A stretch of 64,000 nt of DNA, from assembly GCA_903821695.1 (NCBI GenBank), contig CAIJLX010000067.1:4956-68955 (forward strand), in the 5' to 3' direction. The stretch is from an uncultured Alphaproteobacteria bacterium (GTDB lineage: Bacteria; Pseudomonadota; Alphaproteobacteria; Rickettsiales; CAIJLX01). The position numbers were made by a program, and so were the translations under genes. This document shows, in pieces, positions 10,325 through 64,000 of the stretch (its first letter is position 1; each line of letters opens with the position of its first letter). Below the pieces are notes generated by a model. That model was not told where the DNA came from and made no database searches. It was given only the letters and a program-made list of their open reading frames with translations.

Positions 10325-11262
10325 AGTTTTTTATCTTTGCGATCTTGCTTGTCGCGCAGCTCTCTTGCGCGGAAAAGATCCGGCAAGTTATCGGCAATAT
10401 TCGCTATTTTTTCTGCAAGGTTCGTAGAGCCCGCGCTTCCGCCATTTCCTGCTCCATTTCCTGCTGTTCCAGCCCGTCCCACTGTTCTTTTGTCCACTCC
10501 AGGTTCTGTAATTTCTGGCTGATCGCTCCAGTCTTGTTGGCGGTATCGGTCATATTTTTCTCCATCTAGTACTTCTTCTTTTACTATTGATATCACAGTC
10601 GGCGGCAATCCTTTTAACTGTATTTGGCCATCGACCATCGTTTCTTCCACATCCTTAAATGTTACCGTTGTATTTTTAAAAAGCCTTACCAATCGGTCAT
10701 GTTGTGCCGCTATCACGCGGTGTTGTTCAAGGAAGCGCTCATTGTCTGTTGCGCGTGCGATATCAGGGTTATTTTGTCTGCCTAATGTAGTATGCAAATA
10801 ACTTTGGCGTGTACATGTCATCAACACGTTATGCTCTTCATAATTGCAAGAACGCACTCTGCTACGAAGATCTAACAAGAAATCAAGATTCTCTCCATGA
10901 TCCATCAGCACTATTGATAGATTTTTTTCAACCGCAGCCTGCACAATGTCGCGCACACTTGCGTAATATGCCTGTATTAAATGTGGAAGCTTTTCAGGGT
11001 GTTGCACATCGGCATGTTTTGCAATTTCCGGAAAAAGTGTTTGCCCAGTTTGCTTATCAATGCTCAAAAACGAACGTGGCTCGATAACCACTACGTTCTT
11101 ATCTGCAATGCCAGCATCTTTTAACATGCGTAGGTATACAGGTTTGCCTGTGCCGACGCCGCCGCTGATTAATAAAAAGAAAGGATGTTCCTGCGCTAGT
11201 CGCTCGTTGACGAGTAGATCTATCAAAGCAGGTGTCCCGTTGAATGGTTCACCGTATTGCAT
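10321..11262 (-). CDS. Hypothetical P-loop NTPase-like protein (possibly zeta-toxin/AAA_33-like) with a Gly/Ala-rich, then basic, C-terminal tail
   Basis: 313 aa. Walker-A-like LLISGGVGTGKP, where P replaces the usual T/S. A hydrophobic strand plus Asp (IVLMDHGEN) looks Walker-B-like. The tail reads GRAGTAGNGAGNGGSAG...RARELRDKQDRKDKKL. The family assignment is tentative. Confidence 0.6.
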   Translation of the reverse strand: MQYGEPFNGTPALIDLLVNERLAQEHPFFLLISGGVGTGKPVYLRMLKDAGIADKNVVVIEPRSFLSIDKQTGQTLFPEIAKHADVQHPEKLPHLIQAYYASVRDIVQAAVEKNLSIVLMDHGENLDFLLDLRSRVRSCNYEEHNVLMTCTRQSYLHTTLGRQNNPDIARATDNERFLEQHRVIAAQHDRLVRLFKNTTVTFKDVEETMVDGQIQLKGLPPTVISIVKEEVLDGEKYDRYRQQDWSDQPEITEPGVDKRTVGRAGTAGNGAGNGGSAGSTNLAEKIANIADNLPDLFRARELRDKQDRKDKKL

Positions 11263-42142: not shown

Positions 42143-43156
42143 ATGACACAACATACTGCGGATATTGTAATAATTGGGGCCGGACCTGTGGGGCTTTTTG
42201 GTATTTTCGAGGCGGGGATGCTGAAAATGCGCTGCCACGTCGTCGATGCGCTTGAATATAGCGGCGGCCAGTGCACAGCCCTTTACCCCGAAAAACCCAT
42301 CTACGACATTGCCGGTTTCCCGAGCATTCAGGCGGCAGATTTGATCTCTAACCTAGAGCAACAAGCCGAGCCTTTTTCGCCGGTTTATCACTTTAATCAA
42401 CGTGTAGACAAACTTGCCAAAACTGCCGATGGCTGGAGTGTCACCACATCTACCGGCACAAAAATTGATGCAAAAGCCATCGTCATCGCGGCTGGTTGTG
42501 GCGCATTTGGCCCAAACCGTCCGCCGCTTGCAGGGCTTGAGCAATATGAAGGCAAAAGCGTCTTTTATCTCGTCAAACGTCGCGAAGATTTCCGTGGCAA
42601 AAAAGTAGTGATCGCTGGTGGTGGTGACTCCGCTGTCGATTGGGCGATCTCGCTTTCGGAAGTGGCAGAGCGAGTGAGCGTTGTGCATCGCCGCCCTAAA
42701 TTCCGTGCCGCCCCAGAAAGCGAAGCACGCCTAAAAACACTCGCTGATTCCGGTAAAATCGATTTGGTGATTCCGTATCAATTGCATGGCCTCGAAGGCA
42801 ATAACGGCCAGCTCTCTAATGTGATTGTGTCGGATCTTGATAACACAACAAAATCTATGCCAGCCGATATTTTGCTGCCATTCTTTGGCCTTGCGATGGA
42901 GTTAGGGCCGATTGCAGATTGGGGTTTAAACCTCACACAAAATCATATCACCGTGAATCCTGCCACGATGGAAACCAGCGCAGAAGGCATTTATGCGATT
43001 GGTGATATCGCGACTTATGAAGGTAAATTAAAACTCATCGTGTGTGGATTTGCCGAAGGTGCGATGGCGATGCATGCGGCGTATAATCGGGTGCATCCGG
43101 ATAAGGCGCTGCATTTTGAATATTCGACTTCAAAGGGAGTGCCAAACGCCGCATGA
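42143..43156 (+). CDS. fnr: Ferredoxin-NADP+ reductase, thioredoxin-reductase-like type
   Basis: Preferred start MTQHTADIVIIGAGPVGLF. YSGGQCTALYPEKPIYDIAGFP is characteristic of TrxR-like FNR. Second dinucleotide motif VVIAGGGDSAVDWA. Confidence 0.9.
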   Translation: MTQHTADIVIIGAGPVGLFGIFEAGMLKMRCHVVDALEYSGGQCTALYPEKPIYDIAGFPSIQAADLISNLEQQAEPFSPVYHFNQRVDKLAKTADGWSVTTSTGTKIDAKAIVIAAGCGAFGPNRPPLAGLEQYEGKSVFYLVKRREDFRGKKVVIAGGGDSAVDWAISLSEVAERVSVVHRRPKFRAAPESEARLKTLADSGKIDLVIPYQLHGLEGNNGQLSNVIVSDLDNTTKSMPADILLPFFGLAMELGPIADWGLNLTQNHITVNPATMETSAEGIYAIGDIATYEGKLKLIVCGFAEGAMAMHAAYNRVHPDKALHFEYSTSKGVPNAA

Positions 43157-45087
43157 GACGTTTCCTTTTCATCGCACTTTGTTTGACTTTGCCTTTCGCA
43201 GCTTCCGCGCAGATGAAAAGTACGTTTGGTAACGCGTTAGTCGATTCGGCCGATCAAGGTATCGAAGCCCTCGTCACCGCCCAAATCCGCAATGGCAATA
43301 GCGTGAATGTGAAAGGCAACTTCGGAGTGTCGCCACTCATGCGGGCTTCCTATCACGGTTATACTAATGTGATGGATCAATTAATTAGCTTAGGCGCCGA
43401 TGTAAACATGGCAGATGAAGGTGGCGCCACAGCGCTGCATCTCGCCGCGCGGCAGGGCAAAGTTGAGGCCGTTAAATTACTACTTAAATATGATGCCGTG
43501 GTCGATGTCGCCGATGCTGAAGGCTGGACACCGCTGATGCGCGCCGTCGCTGGACAGAAACAGGAGGTGGCGGAAATCTTGTTAAAAGCTGGCTCTAATG
43601 CCCAAACAAAAAATGAATGGGGCGATACGGCGCAGAAATTTGCTGAAAAAATCCCTAATAATGCACCGCTGCTCGAGTTGATGAAACAAACCGTTCCGCA
43701 AGAAAAGAAATTAACCGCAGCGGAAGCAACCCAACGCAATGTGAGCGTGCAAGCGGAAGAAGTATTGCCCAATGACCTTCCACAAGGCGAAAGCATCGCG
43801 ATGCCATTACCCAAAGCAGCCGAAGTGGCCGCTGTTGATTCCGAGCAGCTACAAAAAGAAGAAGCCGATCGTCAAGCATTGTCACAACGCTTAGAAGCTG
43901 AAAAAATCGCACGTGCACGGGCAGATGCCGATCTGCAAGTAGCACTTGCAGCCCGGGAGCAACGTGAAGCAGCAATTCAGGCAGCGGCACGGGTAGAAGA
44001 TAATAGAACGTTAGAAGAAAAACAGATGGCCGAAACGCAAGCCCGGATTGATCTCGAAAAAAAGGCCGTTGCTGTGCTTGAGAAAAAAGCGGCACAACTC
44101 GCACAAGAAAATGCAAAACGTGAAGTAGAACTCGCACAAGCACAAGAAAATGCACGCATCCAAGCTGAACAACAAGCCGCCGCCGAAGCAGCAAAAAAAG
44201 CAGAGCTACTGGCCCAGGCAGAAGTAGAAGCGCGTATCCAAGGCGAAAAACTCGCCGCCGCAGAAGCAGATCAAAAAGCGAAGTTGATAGCGCAGGAAAA
44301 TGCAAAACATCTTGCTGAGCTCGCACAGGCACAGATGGAAGCGCGCATTCAGGCAGAAAAACAAGTAGCCGCGCAAATCGAAAGAAAAACCATGTTACTT
44401 GCACAGGAAAAAACACAGCGTGAGGCGGAGCTAGCGGCACAAGAGGCACGCAAAGCAGCCTTAATTGCACAAGAAAACGAACGCCTTATTGCCCTGCAAA
44501 AAGAAGGTGAGCGTCGCCTGCAAGTCGCTGCAGAAAAACGCAACATGGAGCTGGCATTACAGCAAGAGCAACTCGCCCGCCAAGCCACGGAAGAAAAACT
44601 ACACGCCGAACTGGCACGCCAAAAAAATATTGCCGAGCAGCAGAAGCAGTTTGAGGTGGCCGCTGTCGAGCCACCTAAAGCAGCCGTCACTCCCTTACCG
44701 GCCAGTGATAATATCTTGATCGGCGAAGCGATTGCGGTGCCGGTATCGTCCAATCCACTCATAGTTGCAGCGGCGAACCCTCAGCCTTCCCTGCTCAAAA
44801 TGAACAAAGGGGTCTGGTTACAAGTAGGGCCCTTTATCGAGGAACAGGAGGCCGTGGCCTATTATAACGGGGCGGTTGAGAGCATGACAGACCTGTTGCC
44901 CGCCCGGATGAAAGTGATCACCGCTAACTTTTTGACCGAGAACGCCCCCCAGAATTTCTTGCGGATGGGACCCTATACCACTCAAAAGGTGGCAGAATTA
45001 GCCTGCGGCTCGTTCCGACAGAGCGAACTTTTCTGCGAATATGTGCGGGAAGAAGCGGCTGAAAGATATAACCGCAGACGCCTGTAA
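43153..45087 (+). CDS. Secreted ankyrin-repeat / long coiled-coil / C-terminal SPOR-like domain protein
   Basis: 644 aa. Signal peptide MRRFLFIALCLTLPFAASAQ. ANK repeats (GATALHLAARQGKVEAVKLLLKYDAVVDVADAEGWTPLMRAV). About 330 aa of AQ/E/K-rich heptad-like repeats. The C-terminus VWLQVGPF...FLRMGPYTTQKVAELAC resembles SPOR. Its ATGA overlaps the fnr stop. Confidence 0.85.
   Translation: MRRFLFIALCLTLPFAASAQMKSTFGNALVDSADQGIEALVTAQIRNGNSVNVKGNFGVSPLMRASYHGYTNVMDQLISLGADVNMADEGGATALHLAARQGKVEAVKLLLKYDAVVDVADAEGWTPLMRAVAGQKQEVAEILLKAGSNAQTKNEWGDTAQKFAEKIPNNAPLLELMKQTVPQEKKLTAAEATQRNVSVQAEEVLPNDLPQGESIAMPLPKAAEVAAVDSEQLQKEEADRQALSQRLEAEKIARARADADLQVALAAREQREAAIQAAARVEDNRTLEEKQMAETQARIDLEKKAVAVLEKKAAQLAQENAKREVELAQAQENARIQAEQQAAAEAAKKAELLAQAEVEARIQGEKLAAAEADQKAKLIAQENAKHLAELAQAQMEARIQAEKQVAAQIERKTMLLAQEKTQREAELAAQEARKAALIAQENERLIALQKEGERRLQVAAEKRNMELALQQEQLARQATEEKLHAELARQKNIAEQQKQFEVAAVEPPKAAVTPLPASDNILIGEAIAVPVSSNPLIVAAANPQPSLLKMNKGVWLQVGPFIEEQEAVAYYNGAVESMTDLLPARMKVITANFLTENAPQNFLRMGPYTTQKVAELACGSFRQSELFCEYVREEAAERYNRRRL
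44101..44520 (+). repeat. Diverged in-frame tandem repeats (about 174-189 nt period) inside the ankyrin/coiled-coil gene
   Basis: Units beginning GCACAAGAAAATGCAAAACG (44101), GCGCAGGAAAATGCAAAACA (44290) and GCACAAGAAAACGAACGCC (about 44467) encode the recurring (L/I)AQEN(A/E)(K/R)...AQAQ..ARIQAE blocks. This region generates many spurious ORFs on both strands. Confidence 0.55.
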
Positions 45088-51481: not shown

Positions 51482-51496
51482 TTAACGATTTTTTAA
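51482..51496 (+). promoter_or_regulatory. CtrA-box-like site TTAA-N7-TTAA
   Basis: TTAACGATTTTTTAA read directly from the sequence, in the scoA/helical-repeat-gene intergenic region. Confidence 0.4.
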
Positions 51497-51578: not shown

Positions 51579-51610
51579 TTAACTTTTCATTAACATCTCT
51601 GTGTTATGAT
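51579..51610 (+). promoter_or_regulatory. Perfect CtrA box TTAA-N7-TTAAC overlapping a -35 position, with a TATGAT -10
   Basis: TTAACTTTTCATTAAC (51579-51594) matches the full CtrA consensus. TATGAT lies at 51605-51610. This geometry suggests a transcription start near 51617, which favours the ATG at 51647 as the start codon. Confidence 0.55.
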
Positions 51611-51646
51611 CGCTAAATGGAAACTGTTTTACAGAAGAGAACTTAT

Positions 51647-52765
51647 ATGGCTGAATTGTCGTTAGTGGATGTGATTAATCTAAAGAATAATCCCTCACGC
51701 GAATCGCGATTATTAGTAGCCGAAAAAGTCTGTGATCAATTTAATTCCCGCAATTTTACTGAAGAAGAAACGATTGTAGTCGCGGAAGTTTTCCGCCTGC
51801 TCGCCAAAGATGCCGAGGCGGTGATTCGCCAGGCGATGGCAGAAAAATTGAAACATAATTCCCGTTTGCCAGAAGATATCGCGTTTATGCTTGCCAATGA
51901 TGTGATGCAAGTGGCGCTGCCGATTCTACAATTCTCCCCTGCACTTTCCGAAAATGACCTAATAACGATCGTGCGTGGCACAAAGGAACTGGCCAAATTA
52001 TTGGCAATTACGCATCGCGATGTATTGACACCAGCGGTTTCGAAAGAGCTGCTCAATAAAAGACAAAGTATGATTGCTGAATCTTTATTACGCAATAAAG
52101 GTGCATTGATTGCAGAAGAAGATCTACAGCAAATTATACTGGATTATAGCCGCAATGAACCAATGCTTTCCGTATTGGTTGCACGTGACGATCTGCCTGC
52201 TTCGATCGCTGAAAAAATGTTGTCCATCGTAACCGGCGCACTCAAAGAAGAATTGATGAAAAAACATACGCAGGATGCGCATGTCATTAATGAAGCCGCT
52301 GACGAAGCACGCGAACAGGTTACCTTAAAATATGTGGCAATGCCTTCGGGTGCTGACCAAAAAAAGGAATTGGTGGATCATTTATACCGCTCGCAAAAAT
52401 TAAATTCCTCGATGGTGATTCGTTCGATTTGCCTTGGCGATTTGGATTTCTTCATTGCCAGCATGGCAAAATTAACCAACTGGAAAAAAGCACGTATCGA
52501 ACAGGCGATTAAAGATACTAACATGGAAGCGTTGCGCTTGCTCTATCGCACCGCCGGCTTCCCCGAAAGCATTCAAGATGCCACCTTGGCCGTGTTAATC
52601 CTGGTGTTGGATGAATTAAATAAGGGCCAAAAATCTGGCTCACCGGTATTAGCTGGGCGCATTATTGAGCGGGTCGTAGCTGCTGGTTATGACCGTTCCG
52701 TCAACAACATGTCCTATTTATTGACATTAGTTGGCAAGAAAACCTCAGTCGCCACCCTGCACTAG
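51647..52765 (+). CDS. Helical-repeat protein, DUF2336-like (paralog 1)
   Basis: Track ORF 51617-52765. About 372 aa, all-helical-looking. VAEVFRLLAKDAEAVIRQAMAEKLKHNSRLPEDIAFMLANDVMQVALPILQFSPALSENDL resembles alphaproteobacterial DUF2336 proteins (from memory). Confidence 0.85.
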   Translation: MAELSLVDVINLKNNPSRESRLLVAEKVCDQFNSRNFTEEETIVVAEVFRLLAKDAEAVIRQAMAEKLKHNSRLPEDIAFMLANDVMQVALPILQFSPALSENDLITIVRGTKELAKLLAITHRDVLTPAVSKELLNKRQSMIAESLLRNKGALIAEEDLQQIILDYSRNEPMLSVLVARDDLPASIAEKMLSIVTGALKEELMKKHTQDAHVINEAADEAREQVTLKYVAMPSGADQKKELVDHLYRSQKLNSSMVIRSICLGDLDFFIASMAKLTNWKKARIEQAIKDTNMEALRLLYRTAGFPESIQDATLAVLILVLDELNKGQKSGSPVLAGRIIERVVAAGYDRSVNNMSYLLTLVGKKTSVATLH

Positions 52766-52772
52766 ATTTGAT

Positions 52773-53903
52773 ATGATGAAAGCTATGAAATTAGATCATA
52801 ACGACGTTTCAAGCCTGCTGGCAGACAACACTCCGGCCAATCAAATTGGCGTGGTGGAAAAAATGTCTCATCAATATACCGACCAAAGCGGTGAGCCTTT
52901 TAATAGCGAACAATCCGTATTAGCCGAAGATATTTTCCGCCTGCTAATGAAAAACGCTGAAACACACGTGCGTGCCGCATTGGCGCAGAACCTAAAAACT
53001 GCCGGCAACGTACCGCGCGATATTATTCTGAGCATGGCGAAAGACGTGGAAGAAGTGAGTATGCCTGTGCTTACATTCTCGGATGTATTAACTGAAGCTG
53101 ATTTGCTCGAAATTATTCAAACCAGCACCGATGAAACCAAACATTTAGCAATTGCTGGCCGCCAAGTGGTCTCCGAAAAAATATCCGATGCGTTGGTGGA
53201 AACGGGCCGCGAAAATGTTGTGGCAAAACTGGTGAAAAACGAAGGTGCGGCGATTGCAGAAACCACCTTTAACAAAATCGTCGATCGCCACGCACAGAAT
53301 GAAGCGATCGTACAATCCATGATCGAGCGTGGTTCATTACCTATCGCGGTTGCGGAAAAGATGATGGAAAAAGTTTCCGGTGTGATCCGCGATAAACTGA
53401 AAGAAAAATACGAAGGCCAGCTGGATAGCTCCAAACTCAATAAAGTGGTGGAGCAAAGCTTAGAAGTTGCAACGCTCAAATTGATGGGCTTGAAAACGAC
53501 CGACAAGCAATTGGTTGGCCTCTTAAAATATCTCGGCGAAACCGGCAAACTTTCACCATTTACTGCGCTTTGTATGGGCGACTGGCATTTGTTTGAAGTG
53601 AGTATGTCGCGCTTAGCACGGGTGCCACTCAAAAACGTAAAACTCCTGCTTTCCGATAAAAGTGGCGAGGGTTTTCAATTACTTTACCTTAAGTCTGACC
53701 TACCAGAAAGCATGATGGAGGCAGTTGGACTTGCGGTCAAAGCGATGCTTGCTCTGGAGATGGCACAAAGTAACAATACGATCAAAATTATGCAGTTCAG
53801 CCCAGTAGAAGTGATGGAAAAAATGTCCGAACTTTCCGGCAAACAGGATGTTCCGAACGTGCATTATTTAATGACTATGATGCAGCACCATTTACGCGCA
53901 TAA
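52773..53903 (+). CDS. Helical-repeat protein, DUF2336-like (paralog 2)
   Basis: 376 aa. Collinear with paralog 1 (AEDIFRLLMKNAETHVRAALAQNLKTAGNVPRDIILSMAKDVEEVSMPVLTFSDVLTEADL). Starts 7 nt after paralog 1 ends. Confidence 0.85.
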   Translation: MMKAMKLDHNDVSSLLADNTPANQIGVVEKMSHQYTDQSGEPFNSEQSVLAEDIFRLLMKNAETHVRAALAQNLKTAGNVPRDIILSMAKDVEEVSMPVLTFSDVLTEADLLEIIQTSTDETKHLAIAGRQVVSEKISDALVETGRENVVAKLVKNEGAAIAETTFNKIVDRHAQNEAIVQSMIERGSLPIAVAEKMMEKVSGVIRDKLKEKYEGQLDSSKLNKVVEQSLEVATLKLMGLKTTDKQLVGLLKYLGETGKLSPFTALCMGDWHLFEVSMSRLARVPLKNVKLLLSDKSGEGFQLLYLKSDLPESMMEAVGLAVKAMLALEMAQSNNTIKIMQFSPVEVMEKMSELSGKQDVPNVHYLMTMMQHHLRA

Positions 53904-55155: not shown

Positions 55156-55283
55156 AAAGTTTTGAAGGTTAATCTGTTGAATCGTTTGCTTTTTCTACTC
55201 CCCTCCTATCCGAAATGCAAACGCAATTCGCGCAAATCGAATTGCTGCTTGAAGAAGGGGGTGGCCTATGGCACTCTCTTGGC

Positions 55284-56816
55284 ATGAAACTCTTGTGGAT
55301 TCTATGCCTTGCTCTCTTTTTGTCCCTGCCTTTAACCCTGGCAGCGCAAAATGCACCGCCACCCGGAGGTGCATATATCTCTATCGTTCCCCAAAACAAA
55401 TATCCTAACGGACAGAATGACCCCAATGTGGCCGGCGAATGCTTGCCGATTAAAAATGGCTGGGTGCCACCTGTTTTTGGCAAAGCCTGCCGGATTTATG
55501 CTCCGGGCAATTTATCCAATGGCAGCAGCGCTAGTAGTAGTGGCAGCAACACGAGTACCAGCGCCAGCACAAGTGCCGGCAGCGGCGCAGGCGCGAGTGG
55601 AAGTGGTAGCAGTAGTGGTGGCGTTGTTTGGAGAAATAGCGCTGCTGTCACGTTTGGTGCTAGCAGCGGCGGGCGGTGGGAACCAAACCCCAATGACAAT
55701 GGTGGTAGTAGCAGTAGTAGCAGCGGAGCAGATACGAGCAGCAGCGGCAGCACCAATAACCCCAATTGCCCAGTTCCCGGCACAGAAGATCCGATCCCTT
55801 GCGATGACAATGAAGAGTGCGCGAAAGATTGCGTGAATGGCACACCAATCTGCCTTGAATATGATGAGAATTGCGGATGCACTAAATGGGAAACGCCGCA
55901 AGATTGCCATTGTAAACCTAAATGCGATATTCCCGATCCGAATTATCCTTTCTGCTGTAAGGTCGCCGATAAATCTGGTTATCCTTGCCTAAAAGTGTGC
56001 ACGCTTCCGAGCGGTGATACAGTCGATATCGAACAAAACCCGCCTATCTGCAGAAAATTTTCTGAATGCTGCTATGGCAAACGTGAGGATGATGGCAGTA
56101 CTCCAAATTGCAGTAACAGTAGCATTCCTAGAAGCCCTAATTGCGATCCGGTCGAAACCGAACCCGGCGATCCGCGGGATTATTGTAAGATGAAGTGTGT
56201 AGATGTGTGCGAAGATAAGCAAGCAGTGCAGCGCACGAAAACTTCAAGCGATATTTTCCCTGAATGCTGTACACCGCCGATTCCTATCTCCATTGCCTGT
56301 GCTTGTTGTCGTGATGGAACCGCCAATAAACCTGCTTCGGATTATTGCGAATATTTCTTCCGTTTCTTTAGTTGTGATGATGCGACTCTTGCGTGCCCGA
56401 GTGATCCATCGCTCAACCAATGTGTGATGACAGTTGATAAAAAGAAGAATTGGGTAGAAGGTGACACCAGCCTGCCAGAATATGACCCGAACCATGATCC
56501 GTATTTGACCTTTGACCCGCGATTTAGCTTTTGCCAGGGTCAATGGAACAACCGTAATTGCCGCTATATCTGTCGTGGCCAAGGTATTTTGACCGGTAAA
56601 AATGCACCAACCATGGGCATCTGGGTGAAGGATTATATTGATAATAGCGGCAAACCGATTGAAAATAATTATGCCCTCGAAGTAGAAGGTAATTGTACAG
56701 ACGATCAAGGCCAGGCAAAGCCTATCCCTTGGCCACCGGGGAATCAGCACCAAGAAAAATGTGGTGACCCGATTAGCAGCAGTGGCAGCAGTGCTAGTAG
56801 CAGTAGCGGCCAATAG
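55284..56816 (+). CDS. Secreted cysteine-rich protein with Ser/Gly-rich tracts, no recognisable family
   Basis: Track ORF 55215-56816. I prefer the ATG at 55284, which gives the signal peptide MKLLWILCLALFLSLPLTLAAQN. There are 38 Cys after the signal peptide (hand count), 36 of them in a ~330-aa core, including the CC doublets FCC, SECC, PECC and ACC. It also has poly-Ser/Gly/Thr linkers and a Ser-rich C-terminus. Confidence 0.8.
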   Translation: MKLLWILCLALFLSLPLTLAAQNAPPPGGAYISIVPQNKYPNGQNDPNVAGECLPIKNGWVPPVFGKACRIYAPGNLSNGSSASSSGSNTSTSASTSAGSGAGASGSGSSSGGVVWRNSAAVTFGASSGGRWEPNPNDNGGSSSSSSGADTSSSGSTNNPNCPVPGTEDPIPCDDNEECAKDCVNGTPICLEYDENCGCTKWETPQDCHCKPKCDIPDPNYPFCCKVADKSGYPCLKVCTLPSGDTVDIEQNPPICRKFSECCYGKREDDGSTPNCSNSSIPRSPNCDPVETEPGDPRDYCKMKCVDVCEDKQAVQRTKTSSDIFPECCTPPIPISIACACCRDGTANKPASDYCEYFFRFFSCDDATLACPSDPSLNQCVMTVDKKKNWVEGDTSLPEYDPNHDPYLTFDPRFSFCQGQWNNRNCRYICRGQGILTGKNAPTMGIWVKDYIDNSGKPIENNYALEVEGNCTDDQGQAKPIPWPPGNQHQEKCGDPISSSGSSASSSSGQ

Positions 56817-57147: not shown

Positions 57148-58614
57148 ATGACCGCCCTCACCTCTCTCTCCATTAAAGAAGCCAGCGAAGGCTTAAAGAA
57201 AAAACAATTCTCGGCGAAGGAATTGGTAAACGCCTCGCTGACTGCTGTCGAAAATGCGAAGCATTTAAACGCCTTCATCGTCACCACCCCCGAAATCGCA
57301 CTCAAACAAGCCGCCGAAGCCGATGCCCGCATCGCCAAAGGCGAAGCCCGTTTGCTGGATGGCATTCCAATCGGCGTGAAAGATTTATTCTGCACCAAGG
57401 GCGTACTCAGCAGCTCTTGTTCAAAAATTTTAAAAGACTTCAAACCGCAATACGAATCCACCGTCACCACTAATTTATTTAACACTGGTGGCATCATGAT
57501 CGGCAAAACCAACATGGATGAATTCGCCATGGGTTCCGCCAACATCACCAGTTCTTATGGCAATGTGATCAACCCGTGGAAAAGCAAAAATTCGACCAAA
57601 GATTTAGTACCCGGCGGCTCGAGCGGAGGTTCCTCCGCCGCCGTCGCCGCACGTTTGGTGCAAGCTGCGCTTGGCTCCGACACTGGCGGCTCCATCCGCC
57701 AACCGGCTGCCTTCACCGGCACCACCGGTATTAAACCAAGCTATGGCAGATGCTCACGCTATGGCATGATCGCCTTCGCAAGTTCGCTTGATCAAGCCGG
57801 CCCACTCGCCCGCACAGTGGAAGATTGCGCATTAGTGTTAGAAGCTATCGCCGGCTTTGATGCGAAAGATTCTACCTCGCTCAACGCACCCGTGCCACAA
57901 TGGGCAAAAAATATAAATCCAAATTTAAAGGGCAAGAAAATCGGCATACCAAAAGAATATATGCCCGATGGTTTGAGTGCGGAATTGAAAGCATTGTGGG
58001 ACAAAGGCACCGAATGGCTGAAAGCTGCCGGCGCAGAAATTGTTCCCGTGTCACTGCCCCACACAAAATATGCACTCGCGACTTATTATATCGTAGCGCC
58101 CGCAGAAGCCTCCTCCAACCTCGCCCGCTTTGATGGCATGCGTTATGGTTTGCGCGTTACCGACGGCGTGAAATCGCTTGATGACATGTATGCAAAAACA
58201 CGGGCCGAAGGTTTTGGCGCGGAAGTGAAACGCCGGATTTTGATGGGAACCTATGTGCTTTCAGCTGGCTATTACGACGCCTATTACAAAAAAGCACAGC
58301 GTGTACGCGCCTTAATTTCGCGTGATTTCGAACAGGCATTTGAAAAAGTGGATGCACTACTCACACCAACCGCACCAACACCTGCTTTCGCCATCGGCGA
58401 AAAAATGGAAGATCCGTTGACGATGTATTTGAACGACGTGTTCACCGTTCCTGCAAGCCTAGCGGGCGTACCCGCAATGGCAGTTCCGGCTGGTTTATCG
58501 AGCGATGGTCTGCCACTTGGTTTGCAAATTATCGGCAAACTTTATGATGAGCAAACGGTGTTTGATGTATCACGTGCGATCGAGCTTGCAGCGAACTTCA
58601 CCGCCAAACCTTAA
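57148..58614 (+). CDS. gatA: Asp/Glu-tRNA amidotransferase subunit A
   Basis: 488 aa with the amidase signature [13 protein letters not shown] and [12 protein letters not shown]. Confidence 0.96.
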
Positions 58615-59306
58615 TTCACTTCTCGCGCAATCCAGACCACTCGGCCGATGATATTGATATCAGTAAGAGGGCGAGTATGCGGTGCATAATTTAAATTGTC
58701 GGAAAGAATTTGCACTGTGCCATCGGGCTGCAATTCCAACCGTTTCACAATTAAACCAAACCCATCGAACAACACAAAGATACCAGCCGGGCTTGGTGTA
58801 GTTTCTTTGAGATTAATTAAAACAGTATCACCTTCCGAAAGCGTAGGCGCCATGCTATCGCCTTTGACATCGACTACACGCAACTCATTTGGATTGGCGT
58901 TTAGTTTTTGTTTCACCCAGTTGCGATTGAAGAAGAATGGTTTGTCATCTCGCTCTTGCGTTACCATGCTGGCACCCGCTGCTGAAGTTTCAACGGCGAG
59001 TGATGCAATCGATAAAATTTCATTCGATTTCTGTTCTGTTTTGGGATGTTTGCCACCGCCCCATGATTCTTCGCCATAGAGCAAATACGACATGCTGACA
59101 CCGAGCGAATTCGCGACGGCGGATAATTTATGTGTGGTTGGATTGAGTGATTTTCCGCTCAACACATCATAGACAAAAGAACGCCCAACCTCTGCGTTTT
59201 CCGCCAGTTCGCGCGCATTCACTTGCGCACGTTCCATGGCAATGCGCAGGCGTTCGATCAAGGCCTGGTTCATTTCGTAGGATTCTTTTTTCTTCTTTTC
59301 TTCCAC
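58611..59306 (-). CDS. XRE-type HTH / S24 peptidase repressor (phage cI/LexA-like, autocleavable type)
   Basis: 231 aa. N-terminal HTH ([20 protein letters not shown]...[15 protein letters not shown]) and C-terminal S24 with [10 protein letters not shown] (Ser) and IVKRL (Lys). Alternative ATG at 59273. Confidence 0.85.
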
Positions 59307-59347: not shown

Positions 59348-59950
59348 ATGAATACGCTAACACTCACATCGCTGTTGATCACGAAATTCTGCCATGATTT
59401 GGCGGGGCCTTTGGGCGGGTTGCAAAATGGGATTGAGTTCCTCGCGGAATCCGAAAGTTCGGATGCGGCGGAGCTACTCGGCCTTAGCAGCTCTGAGGCT
59501 TCCGCACGGTTGCAAATTTTCCGCAATGCCTATGGCACGTTTGCGTTGCAGAGCCCTGCGAATGCGGCAGAAATCGAGCAAATGGTGCATGGGTTTTTAA
59601 AACAAACCAAACTTGCGGCGAATATAAATTTGACCGGTTCGCTTACCCAACAAACTCGCAGTGCATTGTTGCAGCAAGTGCTCATCGCACATCAATTATT
59701 GATTTATGGCGGGCGGTTGGAGATTAGTTGTAATGGCAAACAGCTCACCGTAAATGGTTCGGCCGAAAAAATGCATGATGATGCAGAGATCAAAGACTTG
59801 CTCATGGGCTCTGGTGCGCTCAAAATTTCGGAGAGTGCTACCCCGAAATTAATTCATGCATTATATTGGCGCGAATATGCCAATGTGAACAATCTCAAAT
59901 TTAATTCCCGTTTTGAGGCAAATCAGTTCCATTTTACGACAGTTTGGTAG
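59348..59950 (+). CDS. chpT: Histidine phosphotransferase ChpT-like
   Basis: 200 aa. LLITKFCHDLAGPLGGLQNGIEFL aligns with the Caulobacter ChpT motif LAARLCHDFISPASAIVSGLDLL (recalled), including the phospho-His. The second conserved block is SSSEASARLQIFRNAYG. Confidence 0.75.
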   Translation: MNTLTLTSLLITKFCHDLAGPLGGLQNGIEFLAESESSDAAELLGLSSSEASARLQIFRNAYGTFALQSPANAAEIEQMVHGFLKQTKLAANINLTGSLTQQTRSALLQQVLIAHQLLIYGGRLEISCNGKQLTVNGSAEKMHDDAEIKDLLMGSGALKISESATPKLIHALYWREYANVNNLKFNSRFEANQFHFTTVW

Positions 59951-60033
59951 CTCCTAAGCCATTGATACTACAATCGAATTCGCTATAATTTCGGCATAGC
60001 AACGATTGGCATTTCAAAGGTTTCGGCAGCGTT

Positions 60034-62700
60034 ATGGATGACCTGATTGGCGAGTTTCTAACGGAGACCAATGAGAGCCTCGGCTTGCTAGATATCGAGC
60101 TCGTGAAGCTCGAAAAAAATCCAGAAGACCAACAAATACTCGGCCTCATTTTCCGTGTGATGCACACAATCAAAGGTACGTGCGGATTTTTAGGTCTGCC
60201 ACGCTTAGAACATGTCGCGCACGCCTCCGAAAACGTGATGGGCAAAATCCGCGATGGAGCAATGACGGCAACACCGGAAGTGATCTCACTGGTGCTCACT
60301 TCGATTGATCGGATTAAAGAATTGATCCAGAAACTGGAGGAATTGGGCAAAGAACCCGAGGGTGATGATACTGAAATTATCAATCTGCTCAATGCGTGTG
60401 CGGAAAGTTGCGGTGGATCGCTTTCTGGTAGTGCGCCACCACCGCCAACGCCAGTGGAAGCGATGCCGATGGATGATGTGGAAACGGATGCGGGTGGGAA
60501 TGTGTCGCTTGAGGAATTGGAGCGGATTTTCCAGAATACGCCGGTGGATGCGGCGATTGCGGCGAATGTAATTGTGCCGGTAAAACCAACACCTAAAAAA
60601 GCACAGCAAGATGCGGTGGCGGAGGGGTTGAAGGCGGTTGAGCAGCATGGTGAGGGCGGCAATGTTTCCGGGCAGAGTATTCGGGTGAATATCGATGTAC
60701 TGGAAAATTTAATGCAGATGGTGAGCGAGTTGGTGCTGACGCGCAATCAGTTGATTCAAATCGCACGCAACCGCAATGACCCGGAATTTATTACGCCGAT
60801 GCAGCGTTTGAGCCACATCACAACTGATCTGCAAGAAGGCGTAATGAAAACACGGATGCAGCCGATTGGTAATGCCTGGGCGAAATTTCCACGGCTGATT
60901 CGTGATCTCGCATTGGAGCTGAAGAAAAAAATTGAGCTGAAAATGTTGGGGGCGGAAACAGAGCTTGATCGGCAAATGCTTGAGATGATTAAAGATCCGC
61001 TGACGCATATGGTGCGTAACTCGGCCGATCATGGCTTAGAAGGGCCGGATGAGCGGCGGGCGGCGGGGAAGAATGAAGTCGGTACGGTGACGCTGAGCGC
61101 CTATCATGAAGGCGGGCATATTCTGATTAAGATTATTGATGATGGCCGTGGGATTAATATTGAGCGGGTGAAGCAGAAGGCACTCGCCAATGGCATCGCA
61201 ACGCAGAGCGAAATTGATCAGATGAGTGAACAGCAAATTTGCCAGTTCATTTTTAAAGCTGGGTTTTCGACGGCGGAAAAAGTGACTTCGGTTTCTGGGC
61301 GTGGTGTTGGGATGGATGTAGTGATTACCAACATCCAAAAAATTGGCGGTTCGGTGGAATTATTTTCGGTGCAGGGCAAGGGCTCCACATTCGTTATTAA
61401 GTTGCCACTCACGCTCGCGATTATGCCGGCGTTGGTGGTGGAATGCTCTAAGCAGCGATTTGCGATTCCACAGATTGGTGTGAGTGAGATTGTTTCGATT
61501 TTTACGGAGGAACCGAAAGATTATGTGATTGAGGAAATCAATGGCTCGAAAGTGCTGCGGCTGCGCGAACATTTATTGCCACTCTTTTCGTTGCAACAAT
61601 TATTGCAATTGCCGGAACAGAGTGCACAGGCAGAAGAATTATTCGTCGTGGTTTGCCATGTCGCTTCTTATGAATTCGGGCTGATTGTCGATCGCGTGTT
61701 TGATACGGAAGAGATTGTGGTGAAGCCGGTCGCGCCGGTGTTGAAGGCGATCGAGGTTTATTCTGGTGCCACGATTTTGGGTGATGGCAGTGTCATCATG
61801 ATTTTGGATCCGAATGGAATTGTAAAAACGGCGGGAATGGCGAATCCTAACGGTACGAAAGATGATGCAGCGAATGAGAAAAAAGGATTTATCGAAGATC
61901 AACTTGTTACATTTCTGGTGTTTAAAGCGGGCGGCAAAACCACAAAATGTGTACCGCTAGAATTGGTTTCGCGGTTGGAGGAAATTAAGGCCGATACGAT
62001 TGAGTGGTCGGGCCATTCGCAAGTGGTGCAATATCGTGGTGATTTGATGCATTTGATTACGCTCGATAGCAATTATACCATTCCTGAAACGGGCATTGTG
62101 CAGGTTGTTGTGTTCTCCGATGAAGGCCGCATTTTAGGGGTGGTGGTAGAGGAAATTCTTGATATCGCCGAAGCCTATATGGAGGTGAAGGGGACGAATG
62201 TGAACACGGGTTCATTGGGCAGCTTGATTATTAATGAGAAGAGCACCGATTTGCTAGATATCGGCCATTTCTTCGCGCAGCATTTTAAAGATTGGCACAA
62301 AGCGGAAGCGGAAAAAGAATCCGACCAATCTGCAACACATGTGTTGTTAATTGATGACAGCCCGTTCTTCCGCAAATTTATGAAGCCGATTTTAACTGCT
62401 GCGAAATATCGGGTGACAACGGCGGAAAGTGCCATTCAGGCGGTGGAATGGATTGAAGGCGGATTTACCTGCAACGCCATTATCACCGATATCGATATGC
62501 CGGAAATGGATGGCATCGAGTTCCTGCAAAAATTCCGTAGCATGGGCAAACAGACGCCGGTGGTGGCACTTAGCTCATTTTCGAATGATGAAATTTTGAT
62601 GAAAACGGATGATGTGAAATTTGACGGCTATGTGTCGAAAGCCAATCGCGATGCGTTGGTTGCGACGTTGGGTAAAATATTACAGGCGGAGACGGTATGA
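60034..62700 (+). CDS. cheA: Chemotaxis histidine kinase CheA, hybrid form (Hpt, dimerisation/HATPase, two CheW-like domains, C-terminal receiver)
   Basis: 888 aa. Hpt motif FRVMHTIKGTCGFLGL, HATPase G-boxes (DDGRGI, GRGVGMD), two CheW-like segments, and a receiver VLLIDDSPFFR...IITDIDMPEMDG...S..K. Confidence 0.93.
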   Translation: MDDLIGEFLTETNESLGLLDIELVKLEKNPEDQQILGLIFRVMHTIKGTCGFLGLPRLEHVAHASENVMGKIRDGAMTATPEVISLVLTSIDRIKELIQKLEELGKEPEGDDTEIINLLNACAESCGGSLSGSAPPPPTPVEAMPMDDVETDAGGNVSLEELERIFQNTPVDAAIAANVIVPVKPTPKKAQQDAVAEGLKAVEQHGEGGNVSGQSIRVNIDVLENLMQMVSELVLTRNQLIQIARNRNDPEFITPMQRLSHITTDLQEGVMKTRMQPIGNAWAKFPRLIRDLALELKKKIELKMLGAETELDRQMLEMIKDPLTHMVRNSADHGLEGPDERRAAGKNEVGTVTLSAYHEGGHILIKIIDDGRGINIERVKQKALANGIATQSEIDQMSEQQICQFIFKAGFSTAEKVTSVSGRGVGMDVVITNIQKIGGSVELFSVQGKGSTFVIKLPLTLAIMPALVVECSKQRFAIPQIGVSEIVSIFTEEPKDYVIEEINGSKVLRLREHLLPLFSLQQLLQLPEQSAQAEELFVVVCHVASYEFGLIVDRVFDTEEIVVKPVAPVLKAIEVYSGATILGDGSVIMILDPNGIVKTAGMANPNGTKDDAANEKKGFIEDQLVTFLVFKAGGKTTKCVPLELVSRLEEIKADTIEWSGHSQVVQYRGDLMHLITLDSNYTIPETGIVQVVVFSDEGRILGVVVEEILDIAEAYMEVKGTNVNTGSLGSLIINEKSTDLLDIGHFFAQHFKDWHKAEAEKESDQSATHVLLIDDSPFFRKFMKPILTAAKYRVTTAESAIQAVEWIEGGFTCNAIITDIDMPEMDGIEFLQKFRSMGKQTPVVALSSFSNDEILMKTDDVKFDGYVSKANRDALVATLGKILQAETV

Positions 62701-63182
62701 ATAATCTCGTAGTCGCCAACAAAACGAAATTACGGGCGGCAGATAGCATCAAAGATTTTGTGACGATGAGGGTGGCGGGGCAGCTTTTTGGTATTCCGGT
62801 GATGCTGGTGCAAGATGTGTTGCGGCCACAAAAAATAACGCCGATTCCGTTGGCGCCGAAAGAAGTGGCGGGCTCGCTCAATTTACGTGGGCGAATTGTG
62901 ACGGCGATTGATGTACGCAAACGGTTGGGGCTTGAGGCACGGGCGGAGAAGGAAAAATATATGCTGGTCGCCGTCGAGCATAAAAACGATATTTATAGTT
63001 TAGTGGTGGACAGTGTGGGTGAGGTGTTGAGCCTTTCTATTAAAGATTTTCAGGCAAACCCAACTAACCTGAATCCTAATTGGCAACAGGTTTCGCTGGG
63101 AATTTACAGGCTTAAAGAGGAACTCCTTATTGTACTCGATGCTGAAAATCTGTTATCATTTGATGTGAGTGGGAAAAGGTAG
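62697..63182 (+). CDS. cheW: Chemotaxis coupling protein CheW
   Basis: 161 aa with a CheW-like fold sequence (FVTMRVAGQLFGIPVMLVQDVL, NLRGRIVTAID). The start overlaps the cheA stop. Confidence 0.9.
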   Translation: MNNLVVANKTKLRAADSIKDFVTMRVAGQLFGIPVMLVQDVLRPQKITPIPLAPKEVAGSLNLRGRIVTAIDVRKRLGLEARAEKEKYMLVAVEHKNDIYSLVVDSVGEVLSLSIKDFQANPTNLNPNWQQVSLGIYRLKEELLIVLDAENLLSFDVSGKR

Positions 63183-63187
63183 GCGAT

Positions 63188-63559
63188 ATGGCAAAAACAG
63201 CATTAGTCGTTGATGATTCGAAAGTAGTGCGGTTATTTGCACGGCGAATTCTGGAGGAACTTGGGTTTAGAGTGCAAGAAGCAGAAGATGGCCAAGCCGC
63301 CCTCACCAACTGCAAAGCCGAATTGCCTGGCTTCATATTGCTCGATTGGAACATGCCGGTGATGAATGGTTTGGAATTTATTCAAGCCTTCCGCAAATTG
63401 CCGAAAGCGGATACGGTTCCGGTTATTTTCTGCACCACCGAAAATGAAATGGCCAAAATCATGACTGCGCTCGAAAATGGTGCGAATGAATATATTATGA
63501 AGCCGTTTGATAAGGAAATTCTCTCCGGCAAATTGTCGCAATTAAATATCACTCCCTAA
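63188..63559 (+). CDS. cheY: Chemotaxis response regulator CheY
   Basis: 123 aa single receiver domain with VVDDS, LLDWNMPVMNG and YIMKPF. Confidence 0.92.
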   Translation: MAKTALVVDDSKVVRLFARRILEELGFRVQEAEDGQAALTNCKAELPGFILLDWNMPVMNGLEFIQAFRKLPKADTVPVIFCTTENEMAKIMTALENGANEYIMKPFDKEILSGKLSQLNITP

Positions 63560-64000
63560 ATGTCTATTCCTACCAAGCCCCGTATTCGTGTGATGATGGT
63601 TGATGATTCCTCTGTCATCCGCGGAATGGTGACACGTGTGCTTGAAGCCGCAAACATTGAAGTGGTCGCCACCGCCGCCAGCCCCGCCGCCGCACTCACC
63701 ATTTTAAAACGCCCAGCGCCACATAAAACCGAAGTCGATATTTTGATTCTCGATGTGCAGCTTTCCGGCAAAGGCGATGCCTCAATCATCAAAGAATTCC
63801 GCAAAATCGATCCGGCGATTCACATCATCATCGCCGCCACGCTCAATGAAACCAACGTGCTAAATAGTATTGATGCGCTCGAACAAGGGGCCGATGAACT
63901 GGTCGCCAAACCAAGCTCACGTAAGGCTCCCGGCGAAACGGAAAGTTTTGTGCGCGAACTGCTCACCAAAGTAAAAAAACTGGCGGGCATTGCGGAAGAA
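63560..64000 (+). CDS. cheB: Response regulator, CheB-like methylesterase N-terminal receiver domain (runs off the right edge)
   Basis: Open-ended, so it is not in the track. Translation from the ATG at 63560 (TAAATG junction with cheY) gives MSIPTKPRIRVMMVDDSSVIRGMVTRVLE...ILDVQLSG...VAKPSS. Only the REC part is visible, so the methylesterase identity is inferred from context. Confidence 0.7.
   Translation, partial: MSIPTKPRIRVMMVDDSSVIRGMVTRVLEAANIEVVATAASPAAALTILKRPAPHKTEVDILILDVQLSGKGDASIIKEFRKIDPAIHIIIAATLNETNVLNSIDALEQGADELVAKPSSRKAPGETESFVRELLTKVKKLAGIAEE

Follow-up and report, generated by a model that had tools for sequence, protein, structure and literature searches.

What does it mean when a gene that belongs to the phosphorelay CckA-ChpT-CtrA stands at the head of a chemotaxis operon? 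The question is raised by a stretch of 64,000 nucleotides (here termed the window) from an uncultured alphaproteobacterium assigned to the Rickettsiales (lineage CAIJLX01; assembly GCA_903821695.1, contig CAIJLX010000067.1, positions 4,956 to 68,955 of the forward strand), in which chpT (59348-59950, + strand; 200 amino acids) is followed, after a spacer of 83 base pairs (bp; 59951-60033), by a co-oriented cheA (60034-62700, +; 888 amino acids) whose product ends in a receiver domain (REC). A preliminary description of the locus, made from the letters and a list of open reading frames (ORFs), had proposed that phosphate might pass from the CheA receiver to ChpT and so connect a chemosensory array with the CtrA circuit. 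The reading favoured here, to which we give a probability of roughly 0.55, is that the gene encodes the canonical ChpT of this organism and has inherited its place among genes of motility regulation, beside an F5-type che operon that is probably separately promoted. The evidence considered consists of family, fold, catalytic histidine, synteny, ctrA linkage in relatives and the lack of a che-specific ChpT clade.

At family level the 200-residue protein is a true member of the ChpT family. Its match to Pfam PF10090 (HPTransfase), over residues 74-186, scores 41.8 bits where the gathering threshold is 22.9, and a profile made from the window protein and 20 relatives (alignment A1) found just three distinct sequences when run against the whole PDB, all of them ChpT and all aligned over their full length (profile positions 3-205), with E-values of 3.5e-34 for the Brucella entries 4QPJ/4QPK and about 2e-26 for the Caulobacter entries 4FMT/4FPP (2.3e-26 for 4FMT). 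The AlphaFold2 (AF2) model, with a predicted local distance difference test score (pLDDT) of 93.2 and a predicted template modelling (pTM) score of 0.89, consists of a long helical hairpin and then an alpha/beta domain, which is the architecture of a hairpin like that of dimerisation and histidine phosphotransfer (DHp) domains, carrying His16, joined to a domain like the catalytic and ATP-binding (CA) domain. Foldseek comparison of this model with the PDB gave ChpT chains as the top seven matches, with template modelling (TM) scores of 0.80-0.83, ordinary histidine kinases lying at 0.4-0.6. The H-box, C15-H16-D17, is invariant in the 21-sequence alignment and aligns with the CHD motif of the Brucella and Caulobacter proteins. 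Identity to the solved ChpTs is about 17-23%, and both NCBIfam ChpT equivalog cutoffs were missed in alignments of full length, with 64.4 against 240 bits for NF046018, a model specific to Brucella/Rhizobiales, and 56.2 against 225 bits for NF046025, which is specific to Caulobacter. Membership of the family had been named beforehand as a point on which the proposed relay depended, and PF10090, the PDB profile search and Foldseek all agree on it.

The product of cheA contains all five Pfam families of a receiver-bearing CheA, namely Hpt (P1), H-kinase_dim for dimerisation, HATPase_c, CheW (in two stretches) and, at the C-terminus, Response_reg (residues 770-877), and its core is matched by the NCBIfam CheA models. 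The cheA stop is overlapped by 4 bp by cheW (62697-63182, +; 161 amino acids; Pfam CheW 111 bits), which is separated by 5 bp from cheY (63188-63559, +), a single-domain response regulator of 123 amino acids (Pfam Response_reg 99.9 bits; top NCBIfam match CheY PRK10610) sharing 57-60% identity with the CheY encoded in the operons of other chpT-cheA loci. Directly abutting cheY is the 5' part of cheB (63560-64000, +), which encodes the receiver domain (top NCBIfam match the CheB subfamily PRK00742), begins just beyond the end coordinate of the preliminary description and runs past the end of the window. The order cheA-cheW-cheY-cheB-cheR is typical of F5 clusters, and the order cheA-cheW-cheY-cheB' of the window is completed by CheB and CheR in its close relative, locus L085. 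The combination of two CheW domains with a receiver is the F5-class CheA architecture (PMC10542144), and by this architecture the window system can be classed as a putative chemosensory operon of the F5 type. As a separate observation, guanine-cytosine skew is +0.23 and +0.13 over the cheA-cheB region (60001-64000) and mostly slightly negative elsewhere in the window.

In a six-frame scan with hidden Markov models (HMMs) for REC and ChpT, both built from related loci, the window was found to hold three receiver domains (CheA-REC, CheY and CheB) and one ChpT, so that none of cckA, ctrA and cpdR lies within its 64 kilobases (kb). The gene arrangement first described for this locus was thus borne out by the ORF coordinates (the 83-bp distance and common orientation of chpT and cheA), by Pfam and NCBIfam (the terminal receiver of CheA, then cheW, cheY and a cheB-like gene) and by the HMM scan (the absence of cckA). 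We infer that cckA and ctrA lie elsewhere in this genome and are served by the ChpT of the window.

The neighbourhood was compared across loci collected in a one-genome-per-species scan with the peptide pattern CHD[LM]AGP[LV]G, which gave 80 further loci; 87 were analysed overall, by local tblastn and ORF analysis, and 77 of these had enough downstream sequence for typing. Type A, in which chpT lies directly upstream of and co-oriented with cheA, accounts for 39/87 loci; type B, in which chpT is followed by a CheY-like gene and cheR without cheA, accounts for 22/87; 16/87 show other contexts and the remaining 10/87 are cut off too near chpT for typing. All complete cheA genes of type-A loci carry the C-terminal receiver. 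Type A was found in the genera Magnetospirillum, Novispirillum, Terasakiella, Caenispirillum, Roseospirillum, Rhodospira, Roseospira, Haematospirillum and Rhodospirillum, and further in an Azospirillum-labelled metagenome-assembled genome (MAG), in MAGs of Acetobacteraceae, in Thalassospiraceae and Sneathiellaceae and in MAGs labelled Rickettsiales. In three Sneathiellaceae MAG contigs the genes for HPTransfase, CheA(REC), CheW, CheY, CheB and CheR follow in order, and the nearest database relatives, with 33-41% identical ChpT, already share the chpT-cheA pattern. In L085, the ChpT of which is 83% identical to that of the window, the operon is complete, with a CheB of 375 and a CheR of 279 amino acids, and is followed by an AAA ATPase gene, with no ctrA next to it. 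Whether relatives keep the adjacency of chpT and cheA had been proposed as the first check on the relay, and its outcome, over many genera, is strongly positive.

A neighbourhood assembled by chance, and without biological meaning, would be consistent with flanks that differ by lineage, such as gatCA and a peptidase-S24 regulator in the window as opposed to FTHFS in Sneathiellaceae. Retention of the same order and orientation in 39 loci despite these different flanks nevertheless leaves it hardly any probability, and chance adjacency was ruled out on the strength of this conserved synteny (39/87 loci). Because the adjacency is conserved in relatives, the gene order speaks for chpT and the che genes being linked in function in some way.

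Loss of genes from the cluster can be followed as well. In L001, which is more distant (ChpT 41% identical to that of the window), and in L005, chpT, cheY, the cheB-like gene and cheR have been kept while cheA and cheW have been lost; here, as in the 22 type-B loci, ChpT has survived and its H-box is intact. Type-B CheY proteins share 47-58% identity with the operon CheY found in the window and in type-A loci, as opposed to about 22-31% with other receivers, and type B can therefore be understood as type A minus cheA, cheW and cheB. In these loci ChpT is a candidate phosphodonor of CheY. A tight chpT-cheY-cheR operon without cheA, cheW and cheB is present at L061 (9965-11855) and at L024, L027, L034, L042, L053, L054, L062, L077 and L078; this ten-locus type-B clade comprises MAGs mostly labelled Rhodospirillaceae, some of the labels looking wrong, with ctrA about 4 kb away in most. 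Labels that look wrong occur on the MAGs of L034, L042, L055, L061, L062 and L077 (Candidatus Marinimicrobia), L060 (Solirubrobacterales) and L011 (Rickettsia typhi). The MAGs with doubtful labels carry an alphaproteobacterial chpT locus, most of them with ctrA; L060 has cheA instead, and L011 has neither.

ChpT evolves much faster than its che neighbours, with a mean corrected pairwise distance across 21 type-A loci of 1.46, the CheA core and CheY having means of 0.26 and 0.32. Genome surveys in the literature often did not detect ChpT in Rhodospirillales (reported in 27-36% of genomes; PMC8116508) or in Rickettsiales (PMC2877005, PMC4426382); the fast evolution of the protein is probably the cause, and the che-linked copy may be the ChpT that these surveys missed.

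chpT is linked not to che genes alone. In four loci, response regulators of 237-262 amino acids encoded near chpT scored 384-402 bits against the NCBIfam CtrA equivalog cutoff of 350, and tblastn with CtrA from these loci placed ctrA within 10 kb of chpT in 28/87 loci. The two genes immediately adjoin in L028 (Parvibaculaceae) and in L023 (a MAG labelled Rickettsiales), and are about 4 kb apart in the type-B loci L046 and L061, with fliI beside ctrA in L046. Caenispirillum L025 and Thalassospiraceae L058 have ctrA together with the full chpT-cheA operon, and in both, as in Rhodospirillum rubrum, the che operon stands between chpT and ctrA. In R. rubrum S1 the consecutive genes RRU_RS02725-02760 are given as chpT (224 amino acids), a 'cheW' of 942 amino acids, a response regulator of 123 amino acids, cheB, cheR, ctrA, fliI and fliJ (PMC12363192 Table S2C); by our reading of its length and position, the 942-residue 'cheW' is a CheA-type gene that bears a REC. 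The Rhodospirillum sp. loci L081 and L084 share this layout. In R. rubrum cckA lies next to flhB in a second flagellar cluster, and the main text of the same study describes the three phosphorelay genes as associated with flagellar genes and proposes no transfer from CheA to ChpT (PMC12363192). The chpT-che gene order is thus already visible in a published table; the breadth of the conservation of chpT, che and ctrA and the phosphotransfer hypothesis seem not to have been set out in the literature searched.

If ChpT copies beside cheA had become specialised, they might be expected among the che-linked sequences as a paralogue that serves the Che pathway only, shuttling phosphate from CheA-REC to CheY/CheB or assisting the dephosphorylation of CheY/CheB, with a separate, canonical ChpT left for CckA and CtrA. 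The NCBIfam scores of the window protein, far under cutoff (64 vs 240 and 56 vs 225), and the very fast evolution of the family (mean distance 1.46 vs 0.26 for the CheA core) would both accord with such a duplicate, although the models that were missed are those specific to Brucella/Rhizobiales and Caulobacter. The neighbour-joining tree of 83 ChpT sequences, marked by gene context, contains no che-specific clade, and cheA-linked and ctrA-linked copies interleave: type A is spread over all deep branches, the type-A copies of Caenispirillum and Rhodospirillum have as their sister group a type-B clade in which ctrA is nearby, and the ctrA-adjacent copy of the Rickettsiales-labelled L023 lies next to the clade of the window. 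No type-specific recognition surface is visible on the H-box helix when cheA-linked and ctrA-linked ChpTs are compared, the phospho-histidine helix being alike in all contexts. No genome yielded two loci in the scan by one peptide pattern, and among the best 120 of 274 matches to the M. molischianum ChpT in a homologue search, most of them unnamed, no second PF10090 protein of that species is named beside the one that is, which is consistent with a single copy. The only chpT listed for R. rubrum is likewise the che-adjacent one (PMC12363192). A paralogue dedicated to the Che pathway is on these grounds improbable. By its position in the tree the ChpT of the window is in the same orthologous group as the ctrA-adjacent ChpTs, and since the tree does not split into che and ctrA branches, the gene is most likely an ordinary shuttle of the CckA-ChpT-CtrA relay.

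On the favoured reading, that of a canonical ChpT in an inherited neighbourhood, ChpT would act as a dimeric histidine phosphotransferase that carries phosphate from the receiver of CckA to CtrA. The ancestral alphaproteobacterial cluster would have run from chpT through cheA-REC (with cheW), cheY, cheB and cheR to ctrA and then fliI and fliJ, and different lineages would have kept it whole, trimmed it or scattered it, the window holding a remnant. The CheA receiver would then most likely have one of the roles reported for CheAs of the same kind, either taking up phosphate as a sink or regulating the dephosphorylation of P1.

The region between chpT and cheA is consistent with two transcription units. 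Within the 83-bp spacer of the window lies a near-consensus sigma-70-like promoter candidate, TTGATA-16-TATAAT (59962-59989; 11/12 matches), and no terminator-like hairpin was found between the two genes on the + strand. Across 37 loci the spacer is 21-672 bp long (median 185 bp) and the genes never overlap, and in L085 a toxin-antitoxin pair, of 85 amino acids and a ParE-like 99 amino acids, has been inserted into it (10657-11203). The lack of overlap, the promoter-like site and the inserted pair suggest that chpT and the che operon are separately promoted, with read-through possible. In the type-B loci the packing is tighter: the chpT stop and the cheY start overlap by 4 bp in 10/22, and cheY overlaps cheR too, suggesting a translationally coupled operon.

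Several points weigh against the view that ancestry and a shared role in motility are all that hold these genes together. Full CtrA boxes (TTAA-N7-TTAA) upstream of chpT or in the chpT-cheA spacer were found in 1 of 75 loci (L015) and not in the window, and as such a box is almost never near chpT or cheA, co-regulation through it does not explain the clustering. Synteny of such depth, with both genes on one strand and a REC-bearing CheA in every case, is usually a sign of more than shared ancestry, and the 4-bp overlap of chpT with cheY in type-B loci points to a real functional tie between ChpT and the che genes. In addition, mirror-tree analysis of the 21 loci with all parts gave a partial Mantel correlation between ChpT and CheA-REC, controlled for the CheA core, of 0.37 (permutation p about 0.001), as opposed to 0.13 for CheB-REC, 0.03 for CheY and -0.06 for P1, a weak signal that is not taken as evidence of physical interaction. 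CheA-REC was residually correlated with CheY and CheR also, and the control for phylogeny and rate is therefore imperfect.

These same observations bear on the proposal that the relay is cross-wired. ChpT would in that case keep its role between CckA and CtrA and would also exchange phosphate with the C-terminal receiver of CheA or with a Spo0F-like CheY, so that the activity of the array would modulate phosphorylated CtrA (CtrA~P) and thereby the expression of flagellar or cell-cycle genes; as transfer by ChpT is reversible, CckA in phosphatase mode could equally drain the Che pathway. The adjacency of chpT and cheA(REC) over many genera, the flanking of the che operon by chpT and ctrA in L025, L058 and R. 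rubrum, the 4-bp overlap (10/22) of type-B chpT with a cheY whose product is orthologous to the operon CheY, and the residual mirror-tree correlation, highest for CheA-REC, are all compatible with such exchange. The CheA receiver, moreover, has its top NCBIfam scores with hybrid-kinase receivers (BarA, TorS, RcsC and CckA), above the CheY models, and these best matches are receivers that feed Hpt proteins. Its acid pocket, phospho-aspartate, Ser/Thr and Lys appear to be present, as read from the translation, and the phospho-acceptor residues of CheA-REC, CheY and ChpT all appear intact (as read from the translations, with His16 taken from the alignment).

Set against this, ChpT persists where CheA has been lost, the spacer has a promoter-like site of its own and tolerates an inserted toxin-antitoxin pair, and the co-evolution signal is weak, CheA-REC tracking CheY and CheR too. 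Phosphotransfer profiling of Caulobacter ChpT by Biondi et al. in 2006 reportedly found CtrA and CpdR as the only targets, which also speaks against an exchange with the Che pathway. Receivers of F5-type CheAs occur also where chpT is not adjacent, and have other documented roles, as phosphate sinks or in the control of P1 dephosphorylation (PMC10542144). Within the literature searched, no paper was found that proposes or tests a route from Che to ChpT. Cross-wiring is thus regarded as possible, while clearly less probable than a canonical ChpT in an inherited neighbourhood.

What the window itself contains is a ChpT gene and a chemotaxis operon, both ordinary, and the comparative result is the more useful one: many early-branching lineages of alphaproteobacteria have conserved a neighbourhood of chpT, a che operon with a receiver-bearing kinase and ctrA, and this synteny makes the idea of a relay concrete in organisms that lend themselves to experiment, R. 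rubrum and Magnetospirillum among them. The Che-like systems of Azospirillum and Rhodospirillum centenum have long-unexplained non-chemotactic outputs. That Rhodospirillales-grade and Rickettsiales-like alphaproteobacteria have an F5-type Che pathway wired to the CtrA phosphorelay, by phosphate exchange of the CheA receiver (or CheY) with ChpT, is a tentative and rather doubtful proposition; were it true, the activity of the receptor array would tune CtrA~P, and hence flagellar biogenesis, cell length or differentiation, or alternatively the Che pathway would be drained through CckA acting as a phosphatase, and there would be a mechanism for those outputs as well as a function for the CheA receiver. 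Exchange of phosphate between ChpT and the CheA receiver or CheY would tie chemosensing to the master regulator of motility and cell cycle, whereas its absence would make the cluster a clear case of regulatory genes held together by ancestry and shared motility function.

Other parts of the window also touch on CtrA. Two full TTAA-N7-TTAA boxes (51482-51496 and 51579-51593) lie just upstream of tandem DUF2336 (PF10098) genes (51617-52765 and 52731-53903), and a box pair with a spacing of about 90-100 bp is found at the same position in L085 (2136-2150, 2235-2249) and in the distant L001 (19842-19856, 19929-19943), where the chance expectation for the matches is 0.05. This conservation across the window, L085 and L001 suggests activity of a CtrA-type regulator in this lineage, and hints at a CtrA-controlled role for the DUF2336 proteins. 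Divergent from chpT, a gene on the - strand (58611-59306) encodes a regulator of 231 amino acids with a helix-turn-helix (HTH) of the XRE type and a CI/LexA-like peptidase-S24 domain (Pfam Peptidase_S24, Phage_CI_repr and HTH_3), which matches the NCBIfam 'ECH_1013 family' with 165.6 bits, below the cutoff of 300. The divergent pairing of such an S24 regulator with chpT recurs in L001, L010 and L085, and the HTH(XRE)/S24 protein is a possible local regulator of chpT.

Ten other large or regulator-sized ORFs of the window are housekeeping or host-interaction genes, among them those for CarB, IleRS, CobT, a permease and an ankyrin-repeat protein. The ankyrin-repeat protein has 644 amino acids (43153-45087, +), and a further protein of 533 amino acids (55215-56816, +) has long Ser/Gly-rich tracts and many cysteines; the L001 gene at the position of the latter has no Pfam match on record. 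The two proteins suggest a host-associated lifestyle, in keeping with the label Rickettsiales on the nearest MAGs and with a regulator family named for Ehrlichia.

Among the closest known systems is the R. rubrum cluster, in which chpT likewise directly precedes a long gene, CheA-type by our reading, followed by a CheY-like response regulator, cheB and, in R. rubrum, cheR; the window differs in having a separate cheW, and the operon of L085 is followed by an AAA ATPase gene where R. rubrum has ctrA. With the F5-class systems, such as Che1 of Azospirillum brasilense, the CheA of Azorhizobium caulinodans and the major che cluster of Caulobacter, the window shares a CheA with two CheW domains and a C-terminal receiver; a chpT partner is unmentioned in the literature found on those systems, whereas here chpT heads the operon. 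The likeness to the CckA-ChpT-CtrA/CpdR phosphorelay (Caulobacter 4FMT/4FPP; Brucella abortus 4QPK, and 4QPJ for the complex with the CtrA receiver) lies in the fold (TM about 0.82), the full-length profile match, the Cys-His-Asp of the H-box and the position of relatives' chpT orthologues beside ctrA, and the difference in an identity of about 17-23%, scores below the NCBIfam cutoffs, the place at the head of a che operon and a window that holds no cckA, ctrA or cpdR. The known partners of ChpT are not obviously alike at the 'specificity' residues of receiver helix alpha-1. In Cereibacter sphaeroides the XRE-family protein XrpA represses ctrA and chpT (PMC11999139); it resembles the regulator divergent from chpT in that an XRE-type HTH protein acts on chpT there, and differs in that the regulator of the window bears a peptidase-S24 (CI/LexA-like) domain. 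In general logic there is, finally, a parallel in the sporulation phosphorelay of Bacillus, KinA-Spo0F-Spo0B-Spo0A, a system with which the ChpT relay has, to our knowledge, no sequence relationship. Spo0B is, like ChpT, a dimeric phosphotransferase with a DHp-like and a pseudo-CA domain that transfers phosphate from a receiver to a transcription factor, and its relay provides the logical model for a route from CheA through its REC or CheY to ChpT and on to CtrA.

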